A stretch of DNA of 19,244 nt from an uncultured archaeon (GTDB lineage Archaea > Asgardarchaeota > Thorarchaeia > Thorarchaeales > Thorarchaeaceae): assembly GCA_964458565.1 (NCBI GenBank), contig CAYWJO010000057.1:1-19244 (forward strand), read 5' to 3'. Positions 1 through 18,448 of this stretch are shown here, one piece after another. Position 1 is the first letter of the stretch; each line of letters opens with the position of its first letter. A program made the translations under genes and the position numbers. The notes below the pieces were generated by a model, which ran no database searches, was not told where the DNA came from, and saw only the letters and a program-made list of their open reading frames with translations.

Positions 1-53
1 ATTTGTCTGACTAGGTCCGATTCGAAATAAAGTGTGTAATATGTTTGACGCAT
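1..53 (-). CDS. 5' end of a gene running off the left edge (MRQTYYTLYFESDLVRQ...), product unknown
   Basis: On the minus strand GGAGGT lies 3 nt before an ATG at 53. The frame is open to position 1. Not in the ORF track. Confidence 0.6.
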   Translation of the reverse strand, partial: MRQTYYTLYFESDLVRQ

Positions 54-100
54 TGTACCTCCTAGTGAAAGAATATTAAAAACCTCCCTTAATATAGGTG

Positions 101-265
101 AACCAATCTTTTTGGTTGACGCAATCCATTATTTAATAATTAATGGTTTGGAAAACAAATCTTTAAATACACATTAGTACACAATACATTTCGTTTGTAT
201 AACAAACCATTAACTGAAGGTGGCTGGATAGTTACATTATGTGACCCTAAATGGTGACCCTCAGT
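101..265. promoter_or_regulatory. AT-rich divergent promoter region with several inverted and direct repeats
   Basis: Inverted repeats: AACCAA/TTGGTT (101-117), CCATTA/TAATGG (126-146), TTAATGGTTTG (140-150)/CAAACCATTAA (203-213), GTTTGT/ACAAAC (193-207). Direct repeat GTGACCCT at 241 and 254. Confidence 0.5.
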
Positions 266-316
266 TGTGGCTTCGCGTTATATACTAACTATGATGGAAA
301 TGGAGTGTGAATAATT

Positions 317-418
317 ATGGCTCTAGCGAAAGACAATCCGCGTAAATTCGTGAAGAAGAACATGACAAAGGCTCCCACAGCGAAGGCTCTGGCACATGCC
401 TATATCTACCAAAGGTAG
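317..418 (+). CDS. 33-aa basic small protein or leader peptide (MALAKDNPRKFVKKNMTKAPTAKALAHAYIYQR)
   Basis: ATG at 317, TAG at 416-418, SD-like GGAGTGTGA at 302-310. Ends 37 nt before the MFS gene. Below the ORF-track cutoff. Confidence 0.5.
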   Translation: MALAKDNPRKFVKKNMTKAPTAKALAHAYIYQR

Positions 419-455
419 ACCCTATCCCGATAGTAATTAAAATTGGTGAAAAGAA

Positions 456-2021
456 GTGAGTCGAATCAAATCTGTCTTGGGACTCCCTGATGCACCTGAT
501 AAGGTCGCAAGACTTGGAAAGATCATGTTTACACTAGGTCCTCTTGGCAACTTCACGTTCACGATTAGTTCTACATTCTATATGATCTTCATAGCTGAGG
601 CTCTAGGCGGTGGCGATTATATTCAGGGTCTCGGTCTAGTAGGCACATTAGTCGTAATTCAGATGGCGGTCCAAATAATCTTGGACTATCCCAGCGGTGC
701 TTTGGGTGACTGGATTGGTCAGAGGTGGGTCATCGCGGCAGGCAACTTCTGCTATGCAATATCGTTCTTTATGGTATCACTTGTTACTTCAGCAACACCC
801 TTCTCATTTCTTATTGCGATTTATGTCTTGCAAGGATTTGCTAACTCCCAGATTAGTGGTGCTTGGGGCGCATGGTTCGATAATAACTATAGAGTTGCCA
901 TGCCCAGTGACGAGGACCGAAAACAGTATGGAGTCTTCTGGGGCCGCACAGGTATGATAATGCAAATAGTATCAACTGCTGCTCTTATTCCTGGAGCTAT
1001 ACTAGCTGTCACAGTTGGGCGTCCTTGGGTATTTCAGTTCCAAGCTGTTGGTGCAGCAATATTCTCACTGATGGTCTTGAAACTTGTACGTGACTTTCCA
1101 GAGGTCGAAGAGTTGCGTGAAGAGCGACCTTCAATGGTTGAATATGTCACCCTCCTCAAGAGTGGAGTTTCATATTTGTTTAGCAACAACTTCGTCAAAT
1201 ACATAATCCTTGGCAGCATGCTAGCAACGAGTACGATAATGGTTTGGGGTAATCTCATACTCTTTCCAATGTACTTTAGCTATCTACTAACTGATATTGC
1301 TGTGGCAGGGTATCGAACAATTCTCTTCGTTCCTGGAGTATTTACACAAGAGCGCTCAGGTGTCTGGTCTCAGAGATTCGAGCCCAGGAAGTGGATTCCA
1401 AGGTTCCGATTAATTCAGGCGTGTGGATTCGTGTTCTACATAGTATTATCAATTTTTATGCTCGTCTTTCCTCCAGTTGTAGACACAACCTTCATCAGCG
1501 TCACAATACCATTCACTGCAATCGAGATCTTACAGGTTCCTACTGCGAACATCATCCCCATTATTCTCATTGCATCAATGTTCTCTGTTACAATGCTCTT
1601 CGGTGGTTTCGCTGAAATACTAACTCAACGAGAACTCCTTGATGTGATTCCAAACAAAATCAGGAATAGTATGTACTCTCTATCTCCTACAATTGCTACT
1701 CTGTTCGCGATGCCTCAGATCGCAATCTTCGGGTGGTTAATTCCGATAATCGGATTCCCCACCACACTGGCAATGATTGGTTTCATTTCACTTATGGGAG
1801 TGGTTATGATTCGCTATGGACTTAATCAAGAAAAGCCAGAACGAACAGATCAGGACCTGTTAGCAAAATTAGCAGAATCTGAATCTACATCTTCTACCCT
1901 CGAAGAGGAGACTCCTCTATTAACGGTTGAAGAGGAATACATAGCTGTCCTTGATGCTCCTTCAGACTATATTGAAGTCTTCGAGGATAAGTTTTCTCTG
2001 GATAGAGAAAAACCTGAATGA
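456..2021 (+). CDS. MFS transporter (paralog 1) with acidic C-terminal tail
   Basis: About 12 hydrophobic segments, MFS motif A-like DYPSGALGDWIGQR, GTG start with GGTGA RBS. Confidence 0.9.
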   Translation: MSRIKSVLGLPDAPDKVARLGKIMFTLGPLGNFTFTISSTFYMIFIAEALGGGDYIQGLGLVGTLVVIQMAVQIILDYPSGALGDWIGQRWVIAAGNFCYAISFFMVSLVTSATPFSFLIAIYVLQGFANSQISGAWGAWFDNNYRVAMPSDEDRKQYGVFWGRTGMIMQIVSTAALIPGAILAVTVGRPWVFQFQAVGAAIFSLMVLKLVRDFPEVEELREERPSMVEYVTLLKSGVSYLFSNNFVKYIILGSMLATSTIMVWGNLILFPMYFSYLLTDIAVAGYRTILFVPGVFTQERSGVWSQRFEPRKWIPRFRLIQACGFVFYIVLSIFMLVFPPVVDTTFISVTIPFTAIEILQVPTANIIPIILIASMFSVTMLFGGFAEILTQRELLDVIPNKIRNSMYSLSPTIATLFAMPQIAIFGWLIPIIGFPTTLAMIGFISLMGVVMIRYGLNQEKPERTDQDLLAKLAESESTSSTLEEETPLLTVEEEYIAVLDAPSDYIEVFEDKFSLDREKPE

Positions 2022-2024
2022 GGG

Positions 2025-2585
2025 ATGAATATGGTCACGCCGAGTCTTCCCACTGTATCAATCTCTCTGAATAGTGGATTTTGGTGTGACTATTCTCTCA
2101 TATCACTGAGTACTGTTAGTGCTCTATTTATGCTCACTATTTCAAAAATAATGTACTCTCTGTTGAAAAGTGTTGGAATGATAGGGTCGGTCTTCCTATC
2201 TTCCCCTCCGGTTGCTATCAAACTCTCAGTATTTCCTAATGCTGCATTGTTCTTGATTGCAATCACTCTAATAGAAACTGGGTCTATTATTGGACTTGCT
2301 AAAACATTATCAGACTCCAAACTTTTGGTTCCTGCTTCATATGATAACGACTTAAGCATATTCTCAAACAATCCAATAGTCGGAGTGATACTTGTCTGTA
2401 TAGTCCTTCAGGCAGCCATCCTCGGGTGGTTGAATCCAGAGATTGGAATCCTAGTTTCTATTGCCTCTATTTGCATCATAATCTGTGTCGGAACAGTGAT
2501 GCTTCAAAGAGGACTTAGTCATAATGACTCGGTTTGGACCGAGTTTGTTGACACACACACTATCTCCGTAGCGGCCCTTGACTAG
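2025..2585 (+). CDS. Membrane protein; strongly diverged homolog of the C-terminal part of the neighbouring MFS transporters (possibly a decaying fragment)
   Basis: QAAILGWLNPEIG...GTVMLQRGLSH aligns by eye with QIAIFGWLIPIIG...GVVMIRYGLNQ (MFS1) and ...GVILIRHGLSQ (MFS2). GLAKTLSDSKLL resembles GFAEILTQRELL. Confidence 0.6.
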   Translation: MNMVTPSLPTVSISLNSGFWCDYSLISLSTVSALFMLTISKIMYSLLKSVGMIGSVFLSSPPVAIKLSVFPNAALFLIAITLIETGSIIGLAKTLSDSKLLVPASYDNDLSIFSNNPIVGVILVCIVLQAAILGWLNPEIGILVSIASICIIICVGTVMLQRGLSHNDSVWTEFVDTHTISVAALD

Positions 2586-2606
2586 TAGCTGGAGCCATGG
2601 GCCGCT
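2570..2606 (+). terminator. GC-rich hairpin spanning the stop codon of the 186-aa ORF; putative terminator
   Basis: AGCGGCCC (2570-2577) and GGGCCGCT (2599-2606) form a perfect inverted repeat. Confidence 0.45.
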
Positions 2607-2636
2607 CAATCCCTTATATTTTCTATAACGAGATAA

Positions 2637-2694
2637 TCACTGATGGTCACTGATGTGGTCACTAAGTCCCAATATTGGCATATTCAGTGACCAT
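2637..2694. promoter_or_regulatory. Operator-like repeat cluster (GGTCAC/GTGACC boxes)
   Basis: TCACTGATG at 2637 and 2647; GGTCAC at 2645 and 2657; 11-bp inverted repeat ATGGTCACTGA (2643-2653)/TCAGTGACCAT (2684-2694); palindrome CCAATATTGG (2669-2678). Confidence 0.5.
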
Positions 2695-2723
2695 TCCAAT
2701 ATTTCTTAGAGGTGTCAATTAGA

Positions 2724-2846
2724 TTGAGTCGCCTTGGAACATTCTTCGGTTTGAAACAGCAATTGATATGTCCTCTATCTCTACAGCGACCCCGTTTATT
2801 AATAATAATCAGGGGTCGCTCACCCTATATCGCGTTGACAAATTGA
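2724..2846 (+). pseudogene. Truncated 5' remnant of a further MFS paralog (40-aa ORF, MSRLGTFFGL...)
   Basis: GAGGTG RBS (2709-2714) and TTG start at 2724. The first 10 codons, MSRLGTFFGL, match MFS2 MSRLANFFGI and MFS1 MSRIKSVLGL. Similarity then stops abruptly. Confidence 0.6.
2785..2820. repeat. Inverted repeat enclosing an AT-rich TATA-like core upstream of MFS paralog 2
   Basis: AGCGACCCC (2785-2793) and GGGGTCGCT (2812-2820) flank GTTTATTAATAATAATCA. Confidence 0.55.
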
Positions 2847-2876
2847 TTAAAAAGATACATCTGGTGAGTGGTATTT

Positions 2877-4421
2877 ATGAGCAGACTTGCGAACTTCTTT
2901 GGTATTCCTGATGCAAACGATAAAATAATGCGTTTGGCGAAAGTCCTTATTGCAATTGGACCTTTAGCCAATTTTACTGTGGTCATGTCTTCTACTTTCT
3001 ACATGATTTTTGTAGCTGAAGCTCTTGGTGGTGGTACAGGATACGAATTCTATGTGAAAGGACTACAGTACGTTGGAATTCTAGTTGTTATCCAAATGGG
3101 TATTCAGATTTTACTAGACTATCCGACCGGAGCAATCGGAGATTGGATTGGTCAAAGATATATCATTACTTCTTCAACGCTATGTTACGCAATTGTGTTC
3201 TACATGATTTCGTTAGTCCAAATTGGTACTCCGTTTTGGTACCTCATTGTCATCTATCTTATTCAAGGATTCGCAAACTCACAGCAGAGTGGTGCATTCT
3301 CCTCATGGTTCGACAACAACTATCGCGTCGCGATGCCTGGTGATACTCAGAGAAAACAGTACGGGGTGTTTCTTGGGCGTTTGGGGATGGTGATGAGTAT
3401 TGTGTCTACTGTTGCTCTGATTCCGGGAAGCATTATTGCTGCAATACTCGGGAGACCTTTTGTTTTTCAGCTTCAGGCTTTTCTTTTGATAATAATTGCG
3501 ATTCTTGGCTTCTTTCTCATAGTTGACTTCCCCGAAGTTCGAGAGGCTCGACAAGGTCGTCCTTCTCTAAGTGAATATACTTCTGTATTAAGTGGCGGGG
3601 TGTCGTATCTATTTGAACATCCCTTCCTCAAATATATTATAATTGGAAGCATGCTAGCGGCTTCAAGCATTATAGTCTGGGGAAATCTAATCTTATTTCC
3701 GCTCTATTTTGGCTATCTTGTTACAGATGTAGCTGTCGCTAGTTTCAGAACACTTCTCTTCATCCCCGGTGTATTTTCTCAAGAGAGATCGGGTGTGTGG
3801 TCACAGCGCTTTGAATCGAAAATTTGGATTCCCCGATTTAGACTTCTTCAAACATGCGGACTAGTATTCTTTTGGATAGTTGGTTCAATCATGGCTTTCT
3901 TCCCACCTGCTCAGCCTGGTGATCCTACTTTTGATATTCTGTTTCCTTTTAGTGATATACCGCTTATCACATTACCTTATGTTTCAGTCATTCCAGTTCT
4001 TCTTTTACTCACAGCATTTGTTAGTACCAGTTTCTTCGGTGCATTCGCAGAAATTTTGACTCAAAGAGAATTACTTGATGCAATTCCGAATCGCATTAGA
4101 AATAGCATGTACTCACTCTCTCCTACAATAGCAACTCTATTTGCGCTGCCTCAAATTGCGATATTTGGTTGGCTAATTTCAAATATAGGATTCTCATTCA
4201 CGTTAATTCTGTGTGGACTAGTTTCACTAATCGGTGTTATTCTTATAAGACATGGTCTATCTCAAACAAAGCCGTTTGCACAAGACCATGGACCTATAGG
4301 CACCCCTGACCAAACTGAAAGAGAGTCAGAATTTAAAGAAGGTTGGTCTGATGATATTCTTGAAGACGATTCTTCAAGTAGCCTAGTTGATGAATGGACA
4401 TCCGATGACATAATTGATTGA
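2877..4421 (+). CDS. MFS transporter (paralog 2) with acidic C-terminal tail
   Basis: Long near-identical blocks shared with paralog 1 (WFDNNYRVAMP, QERSGVWSQRFE, RNSMYSLSPTIATLFA). Start moved from 2868 to ATG 2877 because of the GGTGA RBS at 2863-2867 and the matching MSR N-terminus. Confidence 0.9.
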   Translation: MSRLANFFGIPDANDKIMRLAKVLIAIGPLANFTVVMSSTFYMIFVAEALGGGTGYEFYVKGLQYVGILVVIQMGIQILLDYPTGAIGDWIGQRYIITSSTLCYAIVFYMISLVQIGTPFWYLIVIYLIQGFANSQQSGAFSSWFDNNYRVAMPGDTQRKQYGVFLGRLGMVMSIVSTVALIPGSIIAAILGRPFVFQLQAFLLIIIAILGFFLIVDFPEVREARQGRPSLSEYTSVLSGGVSYLFEHPFLKYIIIGSMLAASSIIVWGNLILFPLYFGYLVTDVAVASFRTLLFIPGVFSQERSGVWSQRFESKIWIPRFRLLQTCGLVFFWIVGSIMAFFPPAQPGDPTFDILFPFSDIPLITLPYVSVIPVLLLLTAFVSTSFFGAFAEILTQRELLDAIPNRIRNSMYSLSPTIATLFALPQIAIFGWLISNIGFSFTLILCGLVSLIGVILIRHGLSQTKPFAQDHGPIGTPDQTERESEFKEGWSDDILEDDSSSSLVDEWTSDDIID

Positions 4422-4504
4422 TGTAAATGGTGAAATTCAACTAATGTGCTAAATAGCAACAAAGTTAATACTCTTTCAGAACACAGAGAATTTGGTGTAA
4501 AATC

Positions 4505-5377
4505 ATGGCAGATAGACCACATTTCTTAGCGGTATCCTATTCTGATTCAGGTCTAAAGACTATGGATTATGAGAAGAAGATGGTCCGAGAGAAAGACGTT
4601 AAATTTGATAATGAAGATGGTTCAATAGAAGTAACTGACGTCCGTTTAGTCTGGTACAAGAAACCGAGTCGTTGGGGTGGAATGAAAGCAATCGGCGCTG
4701 TCGCTGGTGCGATAGCTGGAGCGGCTATCCTAGAGGGTGCTGGCCGTCAAGTTGGTGGTATTGGTGGTAGCCTTCTCAGAGGTGCTAGTCGCGGACTTGC
4801 TTATGCAGCAGTTGGTACTGCAATAAGTTCCTGGACACGTGATTCTTACTTGAATAAAGATAAGGATGGCAACACTGAGAGTCTTGCACTCCCATTAATT
4901 GCTATTAGCAATGCTGCTCAGAGTGGTAATCGGCTAATAGTTGATCTTGCTTCTGGTGGCAACATGGAATTCAACTTCAAACAAAAGAAAGTCATTCCTT
5001 CCGTAATTGCTAATATTACCGGAGCTCAAAAATCCGCTAAATGTCCATATTGCGGTGCTGGAGCAGCAGGTTTAGCTACCTGTTCAAATTGTGGTGGCAC
5101 GCTAGGTGACGCAGGTGGACCCGCTGCTGGGGCGATGGGCGGAGGAGTTTCAGGATCTGCATCGGTGACAAGACATGGTGATCGAATAACCGTTGAGGGT
5201 GATGGAGTAAGCGCGCAATACCATTTACGTGACACTGATGGTGATGGTGAACCTGATAGTGTTACTGTCGACTTTGGTGGCAGCCGTGGAGGAACTGGTG
5301 CGGGTTTCTGCAAAAACTGCGGGAATCCTCTCGATGCGGGTGATAAGTTCTGTGGAAAATGCGGCCAACGAATGTAG
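4505..5377 (+). CDS. PH-like (GRAM/GLUE-type) domain protein with glycine-zipper insert and two zinc-ribbon modules
   Basis: GSIEVTDVRLVW...SLALPLIAI...EFNF plus a helix fits a PH pattern. GxxxG repeats; CPYC/CSNC and CKNC/CGKC pairs; DTDGDG motif. Alternative start at 4562. Confidence 0.7.
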   Translation: MADRPHFLAVSYSDSGLKTMDYEKKMVREKDVKFDNEDGSIEVTDVRLVWYKKPSRWGGMKAIGAVAGAIAGAAILEGAGRQVGGIGGSLLRGASRGLAYAAVGTAISSWTRDSYLNKDKDGNTESLALPLIAISNAAQSGNRLIVDLASGGNMEFNFKQKKVIPSVIANITGAQKSAKCPYCGAGAAGLATCSNCGGTLGDAGGPAAGAMGGGVSGSASVTRHGDRITVEGDGVSAQYHLRDTDGDGEPDSVTVDFGGSRGGTGAGFCKNCGNPLDAGDKFCGKCGQRM

Positions 5378-5388
5378 AATTAATATGA

Positions 5389-6150
5389 TTATCTAAAGAG
5401 ATCTTCATCCTTGGGCCTGATAACGTCCTTTGCTCTCTCAGGCCCATCTTCATATTTATATCCTCTAAGAATAACGATTGGTATTCCTTCATCAGCTTGG
5501 CCCATTATATTTTCTGCAGCTGATGCAATCTCATCGATTTGGCATACCATCGAGCGCTGCAATTCGCGTCCGTAGAGGTCTCGCTTCCCTCTATTGTGTT
5601 TATACGCATTAATTCCTGCACATCCAATCGCTATGTTGATTGAACCCTTTCTCCAAGGTCTTCCTTGCGTATCTGTTATTATGACTGCAATATCTTTTCT
5701 CACCTGTTCCTTCAATTGCATTCGGATAATCTCCGCACTCTTATCGGGGTTCTTTGGAAGCAATATGAAATGTCCTTCAGGTGCATTTGATTTGTCCACA
5801 CCACTGAAATTACAGACTAATCCAGAATGAGTTTCAGTTATCAACGTTCGATCTTCTCTGATTATCTCTTTACTCTCTCTCAATGCAAGCTCAACATGAA
5901 CCGGATCGAATCCGTTTCTTTCGGCTATTTCTGAGGCTTTCTGTGATATACTTACAGATGAAGTCTTTACAATCCTTCCCTCCCATTTCGAAACTATAGT
6001 ATGTGCAAGAATCAGGATATCCATATTTTGGAGTTCAATATCTTCCTTAGTCAATGCTTGAACTATTTCTTTGACAAGGTCTGATATACTATCAATCCGA
6101 GGAAATCCAGAAATACCTATCAGATCAAGACTGTCAACTTCCAAGACCAA
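5389..6150 (-). CDS. cofE: Coenzyme F420-0:L-glutamate ligase
   Basis: Family motifs IVSKWEGR, NFSGVDKSN, LLPKNPDKSA, IITDTQGRPWRKG, DEIASAA..MGQADEGIPIVILRG. Confidence 0.92.
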   Translation of the reverse strand: MVLEVDSLDLIGISGFPRIDSISDLVKEIVQALTKEDIELQNMDILILAHTIVSKWEGRIVKTSSVSISQKASEIAERNGFDPVHVELALRESKEIIREDRTLITETHSGLVCNFSGVDKSNAPEGHFILLPKNPDKSAEIIRMQLKEQVRKDIAVIITDTQGRPWRKGSINIAIGCAGINAYKHNRGKRDLYGRELQRSMVCQIDEIASAAENIMGQADEGIPIVILRGYKYEDGPERAKDVIRPKDEDLFR

Positions 6151-6392
6151 TCACACTTTTTTGTATAGAGATATACTTGTTTAAGTACTGTAAACGCTTT
6201 ATAAAGACTGAAGAGCTTATTCTACCGCGCTAAGATAGCATCTAAGTGTATTCTATCTGCAAATAAGATATAAGCGGAATGAATAGATGGATGTATTGCT
6301 GAGAAGAAGGCTACTTAGACCGAAGAAACTGTATCTATAACCTTCAATAAATAGCAATCAGAAATTAAATCTGTAACCTTGAGGTGAAATGA

Positions 6393-8345
6393 GTGACTAA
6401 TAGTGGAAGCCAACCAACTGGTGATATCAAACAAGGCACAATAGCCAAGTTCATGCGAAAGAGAACACAACTTGTTGGCTTCGAAACTGGTCTGAACAAA
6501 CATACGCAGTATACGATAGAATTCCTAGACAATGCTATCGATGCGCTTGAGAGCTGGTGGTGGAAAACAAAGAAACATCCACGTTTGCAGGATGAATTAG
6601 ACCCGAAGCTTATTGAGGAAGTTCTTGAAAAACTCAAAGGTGAACTCATTGATACTATTGCTCTAAGCAAGCAACTTGAAAAAGATGTAAAATCTGGAAA
6701 AGAGGTAGAGATTCCACCGCGTCGAAAAGAATCTCTTGATGACCGCCTTACAACCTTCAGGAAATTTCTGGTTCCTTTTAGAGGATTCATTAAGAAAAGA
6801 GAGCCTCTTGTTGTGATGCAACTAACAGAAGTTCATATGCCTGACCTCGTCTCTTTAGATGATGAAGAAGGTTTCAAGGTATATGAATTCACATGCTTTG
6901 ATAATGGAGTTGGAATGGTACCAGTTGATTTGGAGAAATTCGGAATCTATCTTGCTTCTAGTAAATCCGAGAAACTTAGACAAACTCGTGGTAGTCAGGG
7001 ATTCGGAGCACCCTCTGCATTTAGTGATGCCCAAAATACTACAGGAAAACCCATTTTTGTTGTATCCAAAAGATACACCTCCGACAAAGCGACTGCTGCT
7101 GACTTTTACACTACGACAGCAAACACTAAGGATTATGTTGGTGGACCTGTTGAAATGGACTTACCACTCGAACATGGAACTTACATTAGACTAAACTTTC
7201 TCAACATTCAATATCGTCGAGGATACGCAGATATCTACTCAGAAATGGCGTCTCTGCTAAATTCTCATGTTACAATTATTTTCATTGATCCGTATGGTGA
7301 AATACATGTTCATCCTCGGAGAGTAAAGATATTTCCTGATGAACCCAAATACGCGCAACCTCATCCTGCAAGTATTAGAATTGGTGAGTTTCAGGATTTG
7401 CTTCGTGAAACTCCTGAGCTCGAACTGAAAGGGTTTCTAACTAAAGCCTTCTGTAGATTGAGTACAAATAAAGCAAGAACAATTCTAGAGAATGCAAATA
7501 AGGAATTACGAAAGCGACGACTTGACACCTTGAGTCTTAAGACTCCAACTGATTCACTTGATAAAGAGGAGGTAGAGCTTCTTTACAAATCATTTTCGAG
7601 TGAGGATTATATCGCCCCTCCAACCGACACAGTAGTAGCTGTAGGTGAGGAAGTCTTTGAGCAGACAATCCAAATGGCATACAAACCTGATTTTGTAGCG
7701 GCGGTGACACGAAAACCTACATCTGGAAAAGGGCTTTCATTTGCTGTAGAGGTGTGTATCGCATATGGTGGAGAGATAAAACCTGCATCATCTGCGCCAA
7801 CGGTTCTCTGGCGATTTGTAAATAGAGTACCAAAACTAAGAGATAACAGTGACTGTGCTACTTGGAAAGCATCGACTATGGTAAATTGGAGAAATTATAA
7901 AGTACAAACCTTTGACAATGGCATTCCTCGAGGTCCTATAATGGTCTTTATTCATGTTTGTGGTGCTTATGTCCATGTTATGTTCAAGGGTCAAAGTAAA
8001 CAAGCTTTAGCAGAAGATGAAGTACTCCTGAAAGAAATCAAGCTAGCTCTAGAAGATGCTGGTAGAAAATTCCGCAGGTATATCACTCGTCGTGAAACTG
8101 CAAGAAGGAAAGCCAAGAGAGCTGGCGTCTTAGCTATGTATGCTGATCAATTCGCTCAAAGTCTCGCAATAATTGCTAATGACGGACGTAAGAAACCACT
8201 ATTTGATCCTGAAGATGTTGCTCGAAAAATACGAGATTCAATTACAGGCTTTCAAACTACTGAGGATGAGGAAGAAGAAGAGGGTGACGATGAGCTTGTA
8301 ACGGATGAGGAGGAATCCGATGATGAGGAGGTTGTCGAAGAATGA
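6393..8345 (+). CDS. top6B: DNA topoisomerase VI subunit B (GHKL ATPase) with a large insertion and an acidic tail
   Basis: N-box EFLDNAIDA, DNGVG, SSK...QTRGSQGFG, HGT, PHP, RFVNRVP, WRNY and transducer FKGQSKQA. GAGGTGA RBS. Confidence 0.93.
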   Translation: MTNSGSQPTGDIKQGTIAKFMRKRTQLVGFETGLNKHTQYTIEFLDNAIDALESWWWKTKKHPRLQDELDPKLIEEVLEKLKGELIDTIALSKQLEKDVKSGKEVEIPPRRKESLDDRLTTFRKFLVPFRGFIKKREPLVVMQLTEVHMPDLVSLDDEEGFKVYEFTCFDNGVGMVPVDLEKFGIYLASSKSEKLRQTRGSQGFGAPSAFSDAQNTTGKPIFVVSKRYTSDKATAADFYTTTANTKDYVGGPVEMDLPLEHGTYIRLNFLNIQYRRGYADIYSEMASLLNSHVTIIFIDPYGEIHVHPRRVKIFPDEPKYAQPHPASIRIGEFQDLLRETPELELKGFLTKAFCRLSTNKARTILENANKELRKRRLDTLSLKTPTDSLDKEEVELLYKSFSSEDYIAPPTDTVVAVGEEVFEQTIQMAYKPDFVAAVTRKPTSGKGLSFAVEVCIAYGGEIKPASSAPTVLWRFVNRVPKLRDNSDCATWKASTMVNWRNYKVQTFDNGIPRGPIMVFIHVCGAYVHVMFKGQSKQALAEDEVLLKEIKLALEDAGRKFRRYITRRETARRKAKRAGVLAMYADQFAQSLAIIANDGRKKPLFDPEDVARKIRDSITGFQTTEDEEEEEGDDELVTDEEESDDEEVVEE

Positions 8346-10441
8346 GTAAGAAAACTAAGGAAACAGAGATTATACAAGCTACTCTTGATGATGTTGAAGA
8401 CGCCTCCAAATCAACAAAGGCTTCAAAGTCACCTAGTAAATCTAAAGAGGCAACTAAAACCTCGTCTAAGAGTACAAAGAAAACAGCAACAACCAAGAAA
8501 AACGAATCTACTAAATCTTCCAAAGCAGAGAAAAAGAAAACAAGTAGTACTAGCAAAAAATCCACTAAGAAAGTGGTTCCAGCTCCCGTAGAATCGAGAT
8601 TTGCTCTTACAGACCTCCCTGGAATAGGTTCAACAACTGAAAAGAGACTAATTGAATCAGGATATGGTACGGTTGAAATAATATCCCGTGCTCGTTCATC
8701 AACTCTAGCCAAAAAAATAGAGGGTCTTAGTGAATCTGGCGCCAAGAAAATTATTGCAACTGCAAAGGATTTAGTCAAGGGCGGAAAAACACCCAAGATT
8801 GAAGGGTCTGAACAAACTGAGGAAATATTTTCTGCAGAAGGACCAAAGCTCACTAATATTCCTGGGATAGGATCAAAACTAGCAAAAAGTTTGGAATCTG
8901 CTGGTTATACTTCAATTGCGAGATTATCAAGGTCGCAACCATCCACAGTTGTGAAGAAAGTCGATGGTCTAAGTACCATACGTGCTGAAAGTATTGTTGC
9001 TGATGCAAAGAAATTCATGAAAGAGGTTGAACTTAGAACATTAATCACAGAACCAGAAAAAGCTATAGTGTCAACAAAAACTGCTAAACCTGATGAATCA
9101 AAGGAAATTTCAATAGACGAGAAGAAGGCACCTCCGAAGAAGGTTTCTAAGAAGGCTCCCTCAAAGAAAGATAAACAAAAACCTCCGAAAAAGGCTCCCA
9201 AAAAACAAAAACCACCAACAAAGAAGAAGTCCAAAGTCATACGTAAGAAATCTGGTCTCCCAGTTCCAAAAGCTGTTGAATCTTTGAACAAAGAAATGGT
9301 GAAAAAATGGAGGGATGCTGAACAACGGGCAGAATCAGGTATTGAAGATGAAGCCATACAGGAAACAGTCGAGGTTGTTACTCTCACAATGGATGATACA
9401 CGTGATAGACTAATCGATGTTGCAATGGAAGTTTTGAATGAAGCTATGGTGACAGGGCGCCCTGCGTTTGAGATACCTAGCCGTTCAAGTGACAATATCG
9501 TATGGGATGAAATACGTGACTTATTACTACTTGGAATGAAGACGATTTCTAGACCATATCACTCACTTGGTTCAGTCGTTGATGCAACCAGGACAGCTCG
9601 AGTAATGGAAATTGTTTATGAATTGCTGAAGTCAAGCCTACACGCAACGAAACGAGAGGTATACTACAGTGATGTGAATCTCTTTAGAGAGCAGAGATAC
9701 AGCGACAAGATAATTGAAGATGTTGCATCTATGCTTAAGACGACCCGTGATAGTATACATGTTGTCGCATCCGCAAGAGGATCTGCAATGGGTCGTGTTG
9801 TGATTCAAGATGGTGGGGACCAAATCGATCTCACAAAGATGGGCACAGGTGGATGGGCTATCACACCCTTTCTAGATCAAGTGGAGATTCTTGAGAGTGA
9901 TGCAGAATTCATACTCCTCTCCGAAAAAGATGCAGCAGTTATGAGACTGGCTGAGGTAAAATATTGGAACCGCCAACCCTGTATTGTTCTGACCGGAAAA
10001 GGTTCTGGAGATATTGCTACGCGTGCTTTTCTAAAAACGCTTGTGAAAGAACTTGAAATTCCTGCATTCGCACTTGTCGATTCTGATCCATATGGACATT
10101 ATATCTACTCGGTCTTCCTGCGAGGTAGTAAACGACTTAGCTACGAGTCTCCATTCATCGCAACTCCAGAGTTGAAGCTTCTGGGGGTATTGACAAGAGA
10201 CCTAGATGAATACAATATTCCTAAGGCCGTAAGAATTCCGATGGAACCTACTGACATCAAACGTGTCAAGGATATGCTAAAGGAACCATTTGTCAGACAA
10301 AACAAAGAATGGGTCGAGGATCTAAAGCTCATGCTTAGTCTTAGAGAGAAGGCGGAGATACAGGCTTTTGCAAGTCACTCCTTTGAATATCTCACAGACG
10401 AGTACATTCCAAGAAAATTAGAAACCGGTGATTGGATTTAA
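8342..10441 (+). CDS. top6A: DNA topoisomerase VI subunit A (Spo11 family) with an N-terminal Lys-rich / double-HhH extension
   Basis: Catalytic motif TKREVYY (Y441/Y442), Toprim EKDA and DSDPYG, TGKG, KAEIQA. ATGA overlap with the top6B stop. Confidence 0.93.
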   Translation: MSKKTKETEIIQATLDDVEDASKSTKASKSPSKSKEATKTSSKSTKKTATTKKNESTKSSKAEKKKTSSTSKKSTKKVVPAPVESRFALTDLPGIGSTTEKRLIESGYGTVEIISRARSSTLAKKIEGLSESGAKKIIATAKDLVKGGKTPKIEGSEQTEEIFSAEGPKLTNIPGIGSKLAKSLESAGYTSIARLSRSQPSTVVKKVDGLSTIRAESIVADAKKFMKEVELRTLITEPEKAIVSTKTAKPDESKEISIDEKKAPPKKVSKKAPSKKDKQKPPKKAPKKQKPPTKKKSKVIRKKSGLPVPKAVESLNKEMVKKWRDAEQRAESGIEDEAIQETVEVVTLTMDDTRDRLIDVAMEVLNEAMVTGRPAFEIPSRSSDNIVWDEIRDLLLLGMKTISRPYHSLGSVVDATRTARVMEIVYELLKSSLHATKREVYYSDVNLFREQRYSDKIIEDVASMLKTTRDSIHVVASARGSAMGRVVIQDGGDQIDLTKMGTGGWAITPFLDQVEILESDAEFILLSEKDAAVMRLAEVKYWNRQPCIVLTGKGSGDIATRAFLKTLVKELEIPAFALVDSDPYGHYIYSVFLRGSKRLSYESPFIATPELKLLGVLTRDLDEYNIPKAVRIPMEPTDIKRVKDMLKEPFVRQNKEWVEDLKLMLSLREKAEIQAFASHSFEYLTDEYIPRKLETGDWI

Positions 10442-10517
10442 TTGCCAAAATGAATGTCCATTAGGTAAGCCTGATAAGAGGATACGAGTAGTGTTCTTAT
10501 TTCAGGAGTCATAACAA

Positions 10518-11444
10518 ATGATATCTAAAGTAGGAATTCCTGTAATTGATGCTCATTCTCATTTCATTACATATAATACTGTGAAGGCTTGGTTTTCTGA
10601 TCCGGCTCGAATAGAAACCATGCGAGCACGTGTCGCTTATCAGACTGATATGGAAGAGCTGAAACTACCTGATGAGCCTTGGGACACTGGAAAGATGTGG
10701 ATCGATGAACTAGACAAATATGGAATCGAATCTATCGGTATGATGATTGGTCCTGAATCTTGGGACGAATTCAACAAAACGCGTAATCGATTTCCTGGTC
10801 GATTCATAGGATATGCGAATGTTAATCCTGCAATGGATGATGCTGTAGAAACCGTGAGACGTGCAGCTCGTGACAATTTTCAAGGTATCAAACTATATCC
10901 AAGCAATTGGGATCGTCACGTTTACGATGAAAGTGTATATCCAATCTATGAAGAGGCACGGAAACAGAATCTGCTAGTAGTCATTCATTTTGGAATCACA
11001 ATTGGGGATCAAGCAAATCTTCGCTATGGGAATCCTCTTGATATTCAGAAACCAGCTCATGACTTTCCCGAATTGAATTTCATGATTGCGCATTTCGGAG
11101 CGGGTTTCTTTAGAGAGGTACTAATGCTATTCTACCAAACTGCTAACGTTGTAGTAGATACTAGTGGTAGTAATAGTTGGATGATCTATCAACCATATGA
11201 TTTGACATTGACAAAGATTTTTGAAAAAGCGTTAAAAGCTGGTGCGGCGTGCAGGGTTGTATTTGGAACAGATTCCTCTTTCTTTCCGAGAGGATATCGG
11301 TTTAACCTTCTTCAAGATCAATATAAAGCAGTGAAATCTCTATGTCCACAACTGTGCTTTAGTGAAGATGATGTAGATCTTATATTCAGGAAAAATATTC
11401 TACGGTTGACAGGATTCAAACCCTTTACTGAGCTAAAGCATTGA
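10518..11444 (+). CDS. Metal-dependent amidohydrolase (TIM barrel, Amidohydro_2-like)
   Basis: IDAHSH, GIKLYP, VIHFG, IAHFG, DTSGS and FGTDS motifs; AGGAG RBS. Confidence 0.88.
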   Translation: MISKVGIPVIDAHSHFITYNTVKAWFSDPARIETMRARVAYQTDMEELKLPDEPWDTGKMWIDELDKYGIESIGMMIGPESWDEFNKTRNRFPGRFIGYANVNPAMDDAVETVRRAARDNFQGIKLYPSNWDRHVYDESVYPIYEEARKQNLLVVIHFGITIGDQANLRYGNPLDIQKPAHDFPELNFMIAHFGAGFFREVLMLFYQTANVVVDTSGSNSWMIYQPYDLTLTKIFEKALKAGAACRVVFGTDSSFFPRGYRFNLLQDQYKAVKSLCPQLCFSEDDVDLIFRKNILRLTGFKPFTELKH

Positions 11445-11454
11445 CTTATAGGGG

Positions 11455-11544
11455 ACTATTACAGAATATGTAATGGTAGAACGCTGACAGGGATTTTAGT
11501 ATACCCCAATATAGAGGGTATTACCACACCCGCCCTGATGGCGT
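11455..11544 (+). other. Structured intergenic element (hairpin plus nested stem-loop) between convergent genes; terminator or cis-regulatory RNA
   Basis: ACTATTACA/TGTAATGGT (11455-11477); ACGCTG-A-CAGGG (11481-11492)/CCCTG-A-TGGCGT (11533-11544); inner ATACCC/GGGTAT (11501-11521). The G-U pairs in the first two stems form only on the + strand. Confidence 0.4.
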
Positions 11545-11862
11545 CTACCAATTTGATGTTTTTTGCGCAAATATTGTTTCTTTCAGATTTAGACTCAGTT
11601 TTAGAAGGTTATCATCATCAAGCAGGTCTTGATGTAATTTACAAATGATAGAATCATCAGTGTTATCCGTGAAATGAACACAAGTCCAACATTCTCTGGT
11701 TCTTAGAACGGAGATATGACGATCTAATTCTATTAGATTTCCTAATGAACCATCCTCAATTAATGATGCTGCAATAACGCATGGAGGTCGTTCTGTATAG
11801 AAGCTCTTTGAAAACCAATCTCTTCTTACATCCTCTGCAAGTTCAGTATCCACTAGGCTCAT
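11545..11862 (-). CDS. Small hypothetical protein with a CxxC-x-H...C-xx-H putative metal site
   Basis: 105-aa ORF with ATG start, co-oriented with the upstream gene; motifs CWTCVH and CKLH. Confidence 0.6.
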   Translation of the reverse strand: MSLVDTELAEDVRRDWFSKSFYTERPPCVIAASLIEDGSLGNLIELDRHISVLRTRECWTCVHFTDNTDDSIICKLHQDLLDDDNLLKLSLNLKETIFAQKTSNW

Positions 11863-11909
11863 ACAATATTATCAACATGCAGGATTATATTCCCCACTAA
11901 TTCTTCGAT

Positions 11910-13157
11910 TCAAGCCTTTCTAATCTTCTTCTCTAAGCCCTTGAGTTTCTTTGAGTCGTCTCCCTCTCTGTATTTCTCAGCTGCTTTTCGGTAGAGGTCT
12001 AACGCTTCACGAGACTGCCCTGATTTAGATAAGATATCTCCTTCTTCCTCACAAGCTCTACCCCATTCAACATAAGCATCTCTCGCTTTCTCTGCACTTT
12101 TGACTCGCATTTTTGTGTCAGATGTTAACATATACTGCTCTCTCGCCTTTTTATATTGAACAATGGCCCACTCATATTGCCCATCCTTCATGTGCTGATC
12201 AGCTTGGTCGTAATGATATTTTGCCAATCCTTCGTATCCTGTATCAATCATCCCAACAGCTTCAGAAACGAGTTTCTCATTATTCGCTTGTTCGAACAAC
12301 ACTTTAGCTTTTTCAAATTCCTCAATAGCTCTTTTATGATCATTTTCTTGAAGCTTTCTTTCACCAAAATCAATTCTAGCTTTGCCCATTGCTTCAAACA
12401 CATATGGAGGATAACTGAAGTCTTTATCAACATTCAAAGAAATACCACAGTTTGGACAAGCTGCTAATTGTAGCTCTTGAAGAGGTTGTTTGAGTGATAC
12501 CTTCTCTGGTTTGCCAACTACAACATCTATAAAGTCCGCAGATGTCATACCTCTACCTGATGGGAATAGGTGGGCAACTGCGTCTCTTGTTGCATCAGCT
12601 TGTTCCGGTAATACATGTTGAATTGCATCTTGATCTATGTCATCAATATCATAAGTTAATACTTTGGGAGGTGCAACCTCAGTAAAAGGCATTCCCTCTT
12701 TAACTTCAGTGCTATCTCTTTCTTCCATATGACCCTCATCCCACGATAAAGAGGGTATTTCCTTGACTGAAAGATCACGAGCTTCAATAATCGGTTCCTC
12801 GTCAATAGATTCGGATTCTTCCAATAAAGCAGGTTCATCATATCTGGATGAGGATTTTGTAATTGAATCTCTCAAAATATCATCAGATTCCCATGGTTTT
12901 TCTGTTTCTCCAATTGCGTCTTCGGTAACTGGCGGTAGAATATCATCTTCTAGATCTGGTAGTGTTGCGGCTTCTACCGAAGGTGTAATTGGTTCTTCAT
13001 ACCTCAAATCTTCATCAATATCAGGTAATGTGACGTCTTCTTGAGATGAATCAATTGGTGTGTTCATATCAGGTAATCGCACACCACAACCAAAGCAGAA
13101 TGTTGAGCCCTTTCTTACTTTTTTTCCACATTTAGGGCATTCAATAGTATCGCTCAT
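11910..13157 (-). CDS. Zinc-ribbon / acidic linker / TPR (SNAP-like) repeat protein
   Basis: N-terminal CPKC...CFGC; long D/E-rich low-complexity region; lone CPNC; C-terminal helical repeats (AIEEFEKA, AIVQYKKA, ALDLYRKAA). Confidence 0.8.
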   Translation of the reverse strand: MSDTIECPKCGKKVRKGSTFCFGCGVRLPDMNTPIDSSQEDVTLPDIDEDLRYEEPITPSVEAATLPDLEDDILPPVTEDAIGETEKPWESDDILRDSITKSSSRYDEPALLEESESIDEEPIIEARDLSVKEIPSLSWDEGHMEERDSTEVKEGMPFTEVAPPKVLTYDIDDIDQDAIQHVLPEQADATRDAVAHLFPSGRGMTSADFIDVVVGKPEKVSLKQPLQELQLAACPNCGISLNVDKDFSYPPYVFEAMGKARIDFGERKLQENDHKRAIEEFEKAKVLFEQANNEKLVSEAVGMIDTGYEGLAKYHYDQADQHMKDGQYEWAIVQYKKAREQYMLTSDTKMRVKSAEKARDAYVEWGRACEEEGDILSKSGQSREALDLYRKAAEKYREGDDSKKLKGLEKKIRKA

Positions 13158-13255
13158 TGAATTATAGCTCCGAGTCTGTTAGAGGGGAATCATGGTAACT
13201 TGAATTTTCAAAAATGATAACCCGTTTGCTTTTCATAAGGATTGTGTGGATGTCA

Positions 13256-13879
13256 TCATGTTTGGATTATTGGTATCGGATAGAGAAATGCATACACTAT
13301 CAAAGTGATTATCACTCCGATACCTATGCCCAATAATCCCTGATTCAAAGAATGCTGTTTCAATATTACTCTTGACCATACTACCACTATCCAGAGGATT
13401 ATTACAAATAACGCTGCGGGTCCGTAGACAAGGATCAATGCTGTTCCAGGTCCCGCAACACCAGCAGAATGAACTGAAACTTTTGTACGGAAGTTAGCTA
13501 ACATGACACCCGCTGTTACACATGCATATGCTGCCGCAAGATTGTACATTAGCGGACTTTGAGCTATGAAGTACATCATGAATGCGAGCGTATAACATAG
13601 GATGGCGAAACCAAAAAAACGTGCTCTCATTTTCTGAGTAGAAATATCAAGATCAATATTACCTCTCCAAGCTTGGTAAAGGATAGGCAAAATTGGTGTA
13701 ACAACCATCAGGCTCATACAGATGAGAAATGCCGAGAGCGGGGATAATATCACGCCAAACGTGAGCGGAGGAGCGAATATTATCATTATAGTACCAACAT
13801 AGAAATTAATGAGCGGTGCTCCTGTAAGTCTGGAAATTATTCTGGCGAGAGTCACTTCCCTCCCTGTGAGATCAAGCAT
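13256..13879 (-). CDS. PAP2-like membrane protein (phosphatidic acid phosphatase type 2 superfamily, divergent)
   Basis: Multi-pass membrane protein with KVSVH (C2-like) and SRVILKQHSLNQ (C3-like) motifs; C1 motif not evident. Start moved to 13879 because of the GGTGA RBS. Confidence 0.7.
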   Translation of the reverse strand: MLDLTGREVTLARIISRLTGAPLINFYVGTIMIIFAPPLTFGVILSPLSAFLICMSLMVVTPILPILYQAWRGNIDLDISTQKMRARFFGFAILCYTLAFMMYFIAQSPLMYNLAAAYACVTAGVMLANFRTKVSVHSAGVAGPGTALILVYGPAALFVIILWIVVVWSRVILKQHSLNQGLLGIGIGVIITLIVYAFLYPIPIIQT

Positions 13880-14061
13880 TTCATCACCAAATTTCATGAG
13901 TAGCACTTGAAATATCGATGTCAGTCCTCAATTTAAGGGTCTTCTTGTTCCCCCGATGACGGTTGAAGTGTTGGCATATGTAATGACAAACATAATATAT
14001 AATGTCGGCCATTCAAGAAGAACAAGGGACAACGTTGTTGAACCCTTTGGATGTGCAGATT

Positions 14062-14370
14062 ATGCCAGCGATGCCAAAAAGAGAGATATTCGAGCGAATT
14101 ATCCAGAACATCACAAGCAAGTTTCCTGATGTATATGCAGCACTTTTCATTAGCCCTGAAGGATTCACCATCAATAGCTGGGGTGTTACAATGGAACGTG
14201 CTGAGGAGGTATCTGCACTTCTAAGTGCTCTTATTGGTAAAACAAAGGAAGTTATACGTCAGGTAAATGAGGGAAGCGATATGCAATTCATTCAGATTCA
14301 AACTACAGTTGGTGGAATCCGAATTGCACCTCAAGACGAATTCATTCTTGTCACTTTCACTCGGAGCTAA
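14062..14370 (+). CDS. Roadblock/LC7 domain protein
   Basis: VYAALFISPEGFTINS...VSALLSALIG...IQIQTTVGGIRIAP..FILV fits the roadblock pattern. Start at 14062 preferred to 14002 because of the GGATGTG RBS and a TATA-like element near 13993-14002. Confidence 0.85.
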   Translation: MPAMPKREIFERIIQNITSKFPDVYAALFISPEGFTINSWGVTMERAEEVSALLSALIGKTKEVIRQVNEGSDMQFIQIQTTVGGIRIAPQDEFILVTFTRS

Positions 14371-14395
14371 TGAGTATCCAGAACCAATAAAAGAG

Positions 14396-14434
14396 TTTTT
14401 TTCATCATTAGGACAGTATTCTACATCCTGATGA
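14396..14434 (+). terminator. T-tract and hairpin downstream of the roadblock gene
   Basis: T7 at 14396-14402; TCATTAGGA (14405-14413)/TCCTGATGA (14426-14434). Confidence 0.4.
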
Positions 14435-14454
14435 GCTATTATGTTGAATACTAG

Positions 14455-14470
14455 CGGTATTTTTATACTG
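14455..14470 (+). promoter_or_regulatory. Putative radA TATA box embedded in the imperfect palindrome CGGTAT-TTTT-ATACTG
   Basis: TTTTATA about 80 nt upstream of the radA start; GGAGGT RBS at 14536-14541. Confidence 0.4.
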
Positions 14471-14545
14471 AATTAAGTTACAACTCATTGGAAACGAGCT
14501 TGGGATTAATAGCCTTTCCCGGGCTAAGTAAAGCGGGAGGTCACC

Positions 14546-15595
14546 ATGATGTCACCAAAGAAAAATGAAGACTCAGATGAAGAAGCGGATTACGAAGATT
14601 TCGAAGAAACAGAAGAACTAGATGTTGATGAAATCGGAGAGGACGGAATTACCGGTCTTGATGTAACAGATCTACCTGGTGTTGGCCCAGCAATTGGGAA
14701 ACGTCTGGGAGAAGCAGGATACAAGAGTGTCGAAGCGATTGCTGTTGCTTCACCTGCTGAATTGGCAGCTGCAGGTTCCATAGGTGAAACAACTGCAACA
14801 AAGATAATCAAAGCAGCTCGAGACATGCTTGACATTGGTTTTGAAACTGCAGATATCTTCCTGGTAAGACGCAGAGAAGCAGGGCGAATCACAACTAGTT
14901 CTAAAGCATTAGATGAGCTCTTCGGTGGAGGTCTAGAAACTCAGAGTATAACTGAGATGTATGGGTCCTTCAGATCAGGTAAGACTCAGATGGCACACCA
15001 ACTAGCAGTAAACATACAACGCCCATTAGACGAAGGCGGCTTGGAATCAACTGCAATATATGTTGATACTGAGGGAACCTTCAGACCTGAGAGATTAGTG
15101 GATATGGCTGAAGCATTGGGGATGAATACTGAGAAAGTCCTGAAGAATGTAATTTGGGCTCGTGCTTACAATTCAGATCATCAGATACTCCTGTGTGATC
15201 AAGCTATGGAAATGGCTCCTGAAAAGAACGCTAAACTCCTTGTTGTTGACTCTGTTATGAGTCATTTTCGTGCAGAATACACCGGCCGCGGAACGCTTGC
15301 ACCAAGACAACAAAAGCTCAACAAGCACTTGCATCATTTGCAGAGAGGAGCTGAGATTAACAACATGGCGGTTTACATCACGAATCAGGTCATGTCAAGA
15401 CCGGATGCGTTCTTTGGAGACCCAACTGCTCCTGTAGGAGGTCACGTTCTCGCACACGTTCCGCAGACACGCTGTTACCTCCGAAAATCGAAAGGTGAAC
15501 GACGAATTCTCCGCTTAGTTGATTCACCAAATCTTCCTGAAGGAGAAGCAGTCTTCACAGTGACAAAAGATGGAATCCGTGATGTCACTGCATAA
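14546..15595 (+). CDS. radA: DNA repair and recombination protein RadA
   Basis: N-terminal HhH domain, GFETA polymerisation motif, Walker [21 protein letters not shown], Walker [32 protein letters not shown]. No intein. Confidence 0.97.
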
Positions 15596-15609
15596 GGAAT
15601 CGAATGATT

Positions 15610-15631
15610 GGATGAGGAACCTATCTCATCC
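15610..15631. terminator. Hairpin between convergent radA and the reductase gene
   Basis: GGATGAG (15610-15616)/CTCATCC (15625-15631). Confidence 0.45.
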
Positions 15632-15640
15632 TCTTATCCA

Positions 15641-16990: not shown

Positions 16991-17069
16991 CTTTGGTCAA
17001 TGCGCAATTATACATCTGGAATATAAACAACCCGTTTATGGGAGCTTTTCAATTCTGACCACTCATCAC

Positions 17070-17618: not shown

Positions 17619-17621
17619 GTT

Positions 17622-18215: not shown

Positions 18216-18448
18216 TTAGCATCACGCCTATTTTCAAGTATTCTCTTCCTAAATTGATATTTAATGATTCTGGCGATTTCCTATTAGGTATAATGTGTGT
18301 GTATTATGAGTCAGAAATAATTAATAAATCAAGTGTTAATAGAAAATTGAGTAAAATCACTTCTGAAAATGAATTACATAACATCACCATAACTGTTAAG
18401 ATACTCTCGGTTCTTTCTTATTCAATACTGACCAATGAGGAAATTATT

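Follow-up and report, generated by a model that had tools for sequence, protein, structure and literature searches.

A window of 19,244 nucleotides (nt) from an uncultured archaeon of the Thorarchaeaceae (assembly GCA_964458565.1, contig CAYWJO010000057.1, positions 1 to 19,244 of the forward strand; "the window" denotes this whole stretch throughout) encodes a topoisomerase VI (topo VI) whose A subunit, Top6A, carries an arm of ~335 residues ahead of its catalytic core. The arm contains two helix-hairpin-helix domains of the (HhH)2 type, strongly basic tracts and an N-terminal motif resembling a PCNA-interacting protein (PIP) box. Our analyses show directly how this protein is built, conserved and folded, in which lineages it occurs and where it falls in phylogeny, and the fusion of arm and enzyme is real and not an artefact. 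By analogy with the DNA-binding relatives of its domains, the enzyme is probably an ordinary ATP-dependent topo VI that brings its own DNA tether, the arm acting in cis.

Archaea rely on topo VI as their main type II topoisomerase; the enzyme gave rise to Spo11 and is known to be weak and distributive. To our knowledge, solved topo VI contacts DNA solely via its core and the H2TH domain of the B subunit, Top6B. A natural topo VI with 2 to 7 HhH anchors and a motif like those that dock on the clamp provides a test case for the effects of a tether on processivity, salt tolerance and substrate choice. The features of the topo VI unit in the window are as follows (amino acid (aa) numbers are those of Top6A):

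6393..8345, + strand: top6B, 650 aa, the partner ATPase subunit (NCBIfam NF003218, 343 bits for a cut-off of 274; Pfam Topo-VIb_trans, E 3e-42)
8326..8332, + strand: Shine-Dalgarno-like GAGGAGG, 9 nt ahead of the top6A ATG, read from the sequence
8342..10441, + strand: top6A with its N-terminal arm, 699 aa plus stop
8363..8398, + strand: PIP-like motif, aa 8-19 (TEIIQATLDDVE), with a basic patch before it
8399..8593, + strand: disordered tract rich in Lys, Ser and Thr, aa 20-84 (predicted local distance difference test score (pLDDT) below 50; variable and gap-rich in orthologues)
8606..8779, + strand: (HhH)2 domain 1, aa 89-146 (Pfam HHH_5; AlphaFold2 (AF2) pLDDT 79-85; 57% mean identity, gap-free, over 38 orthologues)
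8849..9022, + strand: (HhH)2 domain 2, aa 170-227 (second HHH_5 stretch, with Cdd1 and IMS_HHH matches; AF2 pLDDT 84-91; 59% mean identity, gap-free)
9128..9268, + strand: histone-H1-like tract rich in Lys and Pro, aa 263-309 (net charge +19, isoelectric point (pI) 11.2; pLDDT below 50)
9269..9334, + strand: predicted helix, aa 310-331 (helix by DSSP, pLDDT ~60; W323 invariant)
9347..10438, + strand: catalytic core, aa 336-699 (Pfam and NCBIfam matches; PDB 2zbk_A, E 1e-57; 78-91% identity among orthologues)
9665-9667, + strand: codon of the catalytic Y442
9923-9925, 10079-10081 and 10085-10087, + strand: codons of the Toprim residues E528, D580 and D582

Translation of the frame at 8342-10441 confirmed the 699-residue Top6A described in an earlier, sequence-only reading of this DNA, together with its estimate that the core begins near aa 345: the canonical core starts at about aa 338-353, residue 16 of the M. 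mazei structure 2q2e aligns with aa 353, and the alignments of the NCBIfam Top6A models begin only at aa 349-356. The catalytic residues, which that reading had judged intact, are all present, with R438 and Y442 (in KREVYY) in a 5Y-CAP domain (TP6A_N, PF04406, E 7e-20, aa 416-474) and E528, D580 and D582 in a Toprim domain (PF21180, E 9e-53, aa 523-693). The top6B gene lies directly upstream, its stop codon overlapping the top6A start as ATGA, and its product shows N-box-, G1- and G2-like motifs in translation and retains the transducer domain in Pfam matches, so that the locus holds an adjacent Top6B with both GHKL-type ATP-binding motifs and transducer, which marks a topo VI holoenzyme and not a Spo11/TopoVIB-like pair. 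These retained motifs, and a core orthologous to the only topo VI that most Asgard lineages have, speak against the specialised break-making enzyme that had been proposed. An insertion of ~100 aa (Top6B aa ~54-160) separates the N-box from the G1 box; alignment spans suggest that other Asgard Top6B of the conserved type share it.

Canonical archaeal Top6A (S. shibatae 2zbk_A, 389 aa; M. jannaschii 1d3y; M. mazei 2q2e_A, 369 aa) shares with the window protein the 5Y-CAP domain and its Tyr, the Toprim Glu and DxD, and the operon with Top6B. In contrast, these structures lack the ~335 N-terminal residues, and with them the PIP-like motif, the basic tracts and the (HhH)2 domains.

The arm carries a net charge of +38 (pI 10.0) and the core one of -14; the N-terminal tail alone (aa 1-84) stands at +13. 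Pfam HHH_5 (PF14520) matches the arm twice (67.7 bits for a cut-off of 27, E 1.3e-18; best stretch aa 89-143), and the two HhH copies seen beforehand at nt 8606-8776 and 8849-9019 translate exactly to aa 89-145 and 170-226. The PGIG (GhG) hairpins are invariant in the orthologues. AF2 modelling of the arm on an alignment of 38 orthologues yielded two separate helical (HhH)2 units (aa 89-147 and 170-235, pLDDT 82-90) joined by a disordered linker. A full-length model, whose core reached a mean pLDDT of 50 and which was used only for the pattern of order and disorder in the arm, placed aa 1-82, 149-166 and 236-306 below a pLDDT of 50. Consistent with this pattern, the HhH units form gap-free conserved islands in the orthologue alignment, separated by indel-rich tracts of 15-39% identity. 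In Foldseek comparisons the units match RadA N-domains best (M. voltae, ~41% identity), and after these topoisomerase V, Rad51 and NusA AR2; the best PDB sequence match of the arm is topoisomerase V (E 1.2e-8), followed by RadA, Rad51 and H. marismortui L32e.

At the position matching aa 310-331, other Asgard Top6A proteins have a short basic helix, and TopoVIA of Asgard archaea and eukaryotes is described as having an extra N-terminal helix, alpha1 (Brinkmeier et al., bioRxiv 10.1101/2022.05.08.491100). Judging from its position, the helix at aa 310-331 is probably this Asgard/eukaryote helix alpha1. A conserved stretch, RKKSGLPVPK...W (window 9242-9310, aa 301-323), runs from the Lys/Pro-rich tract to the helix, with S304 and W323 invariant and L306 in at least 90% of rows.

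To establish how widely the architecture occurs, we combined protein database searches with a survey of 400 species genomes of the phylum, in which f1 denotes the window's own family and f2 its sister family in the same order. Among 5.8 billion proteins searched, more than 120 clusters (at 90% identity) consist of ~700-aa proteins with the same Pfam set, labelled "helix-hairpin-helix domain-containing protein" by NCBI or "SPO11" by JGI, and nearly all named homologues are "Candidatus Thorarchaeota". Two HhH modules were found in 117 of 120 clusters, three in two and four in one. Among the 400 genomes, matches that include the arm are limited to f1, where they occur in at least 65 of 85 species genomes: at least 56 align from residue 101 or earlier, and 8 more (genera g13-g15) have frames of 747-954 aa. 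In the remaining f1 genomes the match is cut by contig ends or fragmentary. Top6A has four modules in genomes G335 and G384 and seven in G388 (950 aa), and the number of modules always changes in frame; two adjacent copies in G335 are nearly identical, pointing to recent in-frame tandem duplication.

Outside f1, the Top6A of f2 (genome G311) has 420 aa and no HhH, and those of nine other Asgard families have 394-451 aa and likewise no HhH. An apparent arm match in G311 was rejected, as the aligned region crossed stop codons and extended into the tail of Top6B. Within the best 150 matches out of 1.84 billion representative proteins, HhH occurs only in two Thorarchaeota-type proteins and one fragment, and the other long matches scanned in that set carry inteins or unannotated tails. 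A search of the ESM Atlas for look-alikes of aa 1-340 gave a single match (0.76) to a generic HhH cluster, which is uninformative. By this distribution, the arm is a late, family-specific addition. A separate basic extension is present in genome G123 (family f17; L037:20-1813), whose 597-aa Top6A starts with a 160-aa Pro/Lys repeat of AEVKKAPPPP-like units, has no HhH and was extended independently.

The architecture is thus already abundant and automatically labelled in databases. The doubt expressed in the sequence-only reading, that the fusion might be a common annotated architecture, was half justified, as far as databases and the NCBI label go; no published description of an HhH-bearing Top6A was found, whether by literature search or in topo VI and Asgard papers such as PMC12680538, Brinkmeier et al. 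and PMC9348778.

To determine which kind of topo VI had acquired the arm, we placed its core in a tree of 60 rows that was built by a quick tree search and includes only one named eukaryote row. The window Top6A groups with other Thorarchaeota forms (support 100) and then with f2 (100), inside an Asgard clade of 12 rows (97) whose sister, with support of 95, is a clade that includes a diatom Top6A; the diatom protein ranks sixth among all representatives, at 42% identity. The core is ~60% identical to the sole Top6A of most other Asgard genomes. This placement, within the limits of a quick-search tree, assigns the enzyme to the conserved Asgard/eukaryote-type TopoVIA clade (Brinkmeier et al. 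2022; Nat Ecol Evol 2025, PMC12680538), and it agrees with the report that the conserved Asgard Top6A is sister to eukaryotic Top6A/Spo11 and is accompanied in some lineages by extra unrelated copies, up to three in Thorarchaeia (PMC12680538). Both studies describe several top6BA pairs per genome, as found here, and leave HhH domains and a PIP-like motif unmentioned.

The second top6AB pair that the sequence-only reading had advised looking for is present on contig C30 of the same genome (G000 in our survey), as an operon:

L003:6529-8070 (G000 contig C30): second top6B, 513 aa
L003:8063-9199 (G000 contig C30): second top6A paralogue, 378 aa

The C30 Top6A, the only further one found in the genome, sits on a very long branch among other archaeal sequences in the core tree. 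It keeps RDFYY, and in 20 of 20 orthologues D-M/L-S stands in place of the Toprim DxD (D-M-S here). Of 30 f1 genomes sampled, 22 have this type, and a homologue search for longer proteins scored no long form of it, which is weak evidence. The genome, at 93% completeness, yielded no match to the gyrase A family, in keeping with Villain et al. (PMC9348778). Since the second copy is divergent with an altered DxD and no gyrase was found, the HhH-bearing enzyme is, on sequence grounds, the main and fully equipped type II topoisomerase of the genome and not a side-lined specialist. A third type of Top6A, 26-28% identical, occurs in some f1 genomes.

Taken together, these data suggest a topo VI that would be co-transcribed with Top6B and remain an ATP-dependent type IIB topoisomerase, to which an arm has been added ahead of the probable Asgard/eukaryote-type helix alpha1. 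From the N-terminus, the arm consists of the basic patch and PIP-like Q-x-T-L, the Lys/Ser/Thr-rich tract, two flexibly linked (HhH)2 domains and the Lys/Pro-rich, H1-like tract. The (HhH)2 domains and basic tracts would bind the duplex backbone without sequence preference, a mode of binding known from the N-domain of RadA/Rad51 and the array of topoisomerase V. Each A2B2 enzyme would then have four or more HhH anchors, which would keep it on DNA and raise the local concentration of G- and T-segments. They would increase its affinity for DNA, its processivity and its tolerance of salt, or help it to capture a second duplex. DNA binding, PCNA binding and an effect of the arm on activity are what we infer from these comparisons. 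The sequence-only reading had seen here a topo VI variant with a DNA-tethering module of its own, possibly a specialised enzyme; the extra, conserved (HhH)2 arm makes a plausible tether, and the specialised role is the part we do not retain.

One parallel is functional. The (HhH)2 array of topoisomerase V is C-terminal and has 12 modules. This enzyme of Methanopyrus kandleri (type IC; 8df7, 5hm5) is also a topoisomerase with a tandem (HhH)2 array, which is DNA-bound in the structural neighbour 8df7, but its catalytic domain is unrelated, and the likeness to the window Top6A is a matter of function, the enzymes themselves not being homologous. Type IIA enzymes have C-terminal domains for DNA binding that are comparable in role to the proposed tether. 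Plant RHL1 and BIN4/MIDGET bind DNA. Both have been named as putative partners of plant TopoVIA (Brinkmeier et al., bioRxiv 10.1101/2022.05.08.491100), so that in plants basic DNA-binding capacity would come in trans from separate, unrelated proteins, whereas the window Top6A, of the same Asgard/eukaryote clade, would have it fused in cis. The window enzyme belongs to the clade nearest to eukaryotic Top6A, for which accessory partners that bind DNA are supplied in trans.

A second tether may lie at the very N-terminus. All orthologues, including those with three, four and seven modules, have at their N-terminus a basic patch and then T-(V/I)-Q-x-T-L-x-(D/E)-(V/L)-(V/L), and Q12, T14 and L15 are invariant in sets of both 38 and 28 orthologues. 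Canonical PIPs of the same genome, such as the Fen1 C-terminus, read Q-x-S/T-L-D/T-D-F-F. The Top6A motif shares the first half of the canonical consensus Q-x-x-[LIM]-x-x-[FYW]-[FYW] and departs from the remainder, and is thus PIP-like only. We co-folded the genome's own PCNA (L058:1501-2247, alignment of 22 rows) with Top6A 1-40 (alignment of 28 rows) and obtained an interaction prediction score from aligned errors (ipSAE) of 0.68, the best control reaching 0.01; the mark calibrated for such co-folds is reached by 58 of 80 solved complexes and by 2 of 110 mismatched pairs. At least 89% of contacts are common to the runs, and the partner pLDDT is at least 55. The predicted contacts join Top6A 8-18 to PCNA 40, 43-47, 124, 223-225 and 241-249, residues that we take to be the canonical PIP site. 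Docking of the enzyme on PCNA through this motif, which may couple topo VI to replication, is in our judgement a fair way short of probable but a real possibility raised by the co-fold. We found no publication on a PIP motif in topo VI, and one review notes solely that topo VI co-purifies with NucS; the motif suggests a direct link to the replisome that is undescribed for topo VI in the literature found.

A comparable combination was observed on the other subunit. In another Asgard order, Top6B lies in open frames of 2258-4305 aa (L095:2815-15369(-), genome G015; also L091-L094). The giant Top6B of G015 has an N-terminal core and a remainder with summed Pfam matches to RAD51D_N and the RNA-polymerase alpha-CTD (HhH-type), in which at least 11 divergent HhH-like repeat units were confirmed, and it ends in a basic Thr/Lys repeat with KQTTLDEI. 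A hidden Markov model of the Thorarchaeial HHH_5 modules found no unit in this protein, its repeats being of a different, divergent HhH-like type. Asgard topo VI thus appears to have gained HhH-type arrays, basic tails and QxTL(D/E) at least twice, on different subunits. Other long Top6B proteins, of 1052 and 961 aa, occur in families f22 and f32 (L033:1156-4314, L036:3401-6286), where an insert of ~250-300 aa, possibly an intein, splits the alignment.

In its fullest and more doubtful form, which we advance tentatively, the proposal is that the Thorarchaeial topo VI would be a clamp-coupled type II enzyme travelling with the replisome and removing positive supercoils or precatenanes in a gyrase-less lineage, with Q-x-T-L on PCNA and the HhH array on duplex DNA, the same solution having arisen independently on the B subunit in the other order. 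If true, this would imply a general Asgard strategy in which DNA and clamp tethers are built into topo VI that eukaryotes supply in trans.

Several observations weigh against the tether or its extension to the clamp. The Top6A motif is without the canonical aromatic pair, which is replaced by V-E in the window and V/L-L/V in the orthologues. Structures of PIPs on PCNA are abundant among solved ones, and the co-fold score may reflect likeness and not binding. The poorly modelled core of the full-length AF2 prediction gives no placement of the arm relative to the DNA gate. Two f1 genomes, G367 and G368, show shorter Top6A frames, of 437 and 505 aa. Finally, the HHH_5 module is found in this genome on ribosomal proteins and RpoK as well, so its ligand need not be duplex DNA.

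This last observation opens the way to a different role for the modules, as a general protein-protein, RNA or condensate adaptor that would place topo VI in a shared compartment or assembly without anchoring it to DNA. Closely related HHH_5 modules are fused to a range of proteins in the same genome (C numbers denote contigs), including two RadA paralogues, one of them in the window:

G000 C1:51879-52889: HHH_5-fused L32e (two copies)
G000 C3:145995-146996: HHH_5-fused S25e
G000 C30:6617-7336: HHH_5-fused Rpb6/RpoK
G000 C11:24526-25269: HHH_5-fused HEAT-repeat protein
G000 C61:6662-8314: HHH_5-fused 539-aa protein of unknown kind
G000 C10:48414-49496: second RadA paralogue (RadA2) with HHH_5

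In a domain tree, the Top6A copies fall into an unresolved bush with the L32e, HEAT and RpoK modules, in which the additional copies of the four- and seven-module Top6A group by lineage and which gives no direction of transfer between L32e and Top6A. HHH_5 matches number 12-31 per genome in f1 versus 2-22 in other Asgard, and the module is, by this census, promiscuous in the lineage. The resemblance extends beyond single domains in HhH-fused L32e (PRK12766; H. marismortui 1s72_Y), which like the arm has tandem HHH_5 followed by a basic linker, and whose model NF009401 matches arm aa 169-296, although the host protein is ribosomal, unlike Top6A. Against an adaptor stand the closest solved relatives of the modules, the RadA/Rad51 N-domain and the DNA-complexed repeats of topoisomerase V, which bind DNA, as well as the invariant GhG hairpins, the strongly basic flanking tracts and a host enzyme that acts on duplex DNA. 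We therefore give the adaptor a small but appreciable chance.

A regulatory role for the arm is unlikely. Its basic tracts would pair with the C-terminal tail of Top6B as a mimic of DNA, keeping the enzyme in a closed state from which DNA or a partner would release it by displacement. The tail (Top6B aa 600-650) is indeed acidic, its last 51 aa carrying a net charge of -19 to the +38 of the arm, and the last 50 aa of Top6B contain 14-21 Asp or Glu in f1 versus 4-12 in other Asgard Top6B. Charge complementarity is nevertheless the one argument for this scheme, which leaves the folded, conserved HhH domains and their amplification to seven copies unexplained, and which is compatible with the tether and not opposed to it.

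Still less likely is an enzyme targeted to recombination, or forming breaks in the manner of Spo11, that would be linked to RadA filaments and informative on the origin of Spo11. The suggestion arises from the neighbourhood as well as from the modules, since the window also encodes a RadA outside the topo VI unit:

14546..15595, + strand: radA, 349 aa, with the HHH_5 N-domain used for comparison (NF003301, 473 bits)

The first HhH copy of Top6A shares 25 of 58 residues (43%, E 2e-12) with this N-domain, in line with the ~25 identities counted by hand beforehand, and RadA N-domains are the top Foldseek matches. The RadA/Rad51 N-domain (M. voltae 2f1h, 1t4g; P. furiosus 1pzn; human RAD51 1b22) belongs to the same HHH_5 family and is the best structural neighbour. 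Copy 2 resembles RadA weakly (12 of 35 residues); the two copies share 26 of 58 residues with each other. The specific relationship to RadA that had been claimed from these identities is not borne out by the domain tree, in which the N-domains of RadA, RadA2 and the G311 RadA form a clade (100/96) excluding all 19 Top6A HhH copies. The second hairpin of RadA is one residue shorter than that of the Top6A modules. In the same genome, the modules linked to S25e, L32e, HEAT and C61 resemble the Top6A copies as much as RadA does, or more, the S25e-linked module reaching 50% identity to copy 1. As judged from these comparisons, the Top6A modules are RadA-type in Pfam family and fold and not in origin. 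A local duplication from the nearby radA was considered as their source, and the domain tree gives it no support.

As to the neighbourhood, radA lies 4.1 kb downstream of top6A, and in many genomes of f1, as in f2 (G311, locus L027), 2-7 kb separate top6BA from a downstream radA, so that the proximity recurs in both families; none was seen in the 2-4 kb of downstream flank examined for nine other Asgard families. Between top6A and radA, the window holds unrelated genes, some of them on the opposite strand. Because f2 has the radA neighbourhood without the arm, the intervening genes are unrelated and RadA forms a separate clade, we see no evidence in these sequences of a special link to RadA or recombination. 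The core does belong to a clade sister to one that contains eukaryotes. Since that core lies in the conserved Asgard clade and the arm is confined to one family, however, the arm is not ancestral to Spo11, and as a late, family-level addition it is uninformative on the origin of Spo11, contrary to what the sequence-only reading had hoped. The absence of the arm from the other Asgard Top6A examined, that of HhH outside the Thorarchaeota type among the best 150 representatives, and the transducer and ATPase-like motifs of Top6B point the same way.

That the arm lies outside the working enzyme, through an internal start near the core, a separate upstream product or an annotation artefact, is very improbable: in-frame Met codons do occur at aa 319 and 350, the latter with a weak GAGGT 12 nt before it, but M350 is not conserved (Ala in the consensus), a single uninterrupted frame is found in dozens of genomes with module-number changes always in frame, the start region and its motif are conserved behind the Shine-Dalgarno-like site and ATGA coupling at 8342, and the HhH domains are visibly constrained.

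Besides top6BA and radA, the window encodes a Ras-family GTPase and a Roadblock/LC7 protein. Its G+C content is ~41%, and the DNA runs that contain this stretch are salt-marsh metagenomes.

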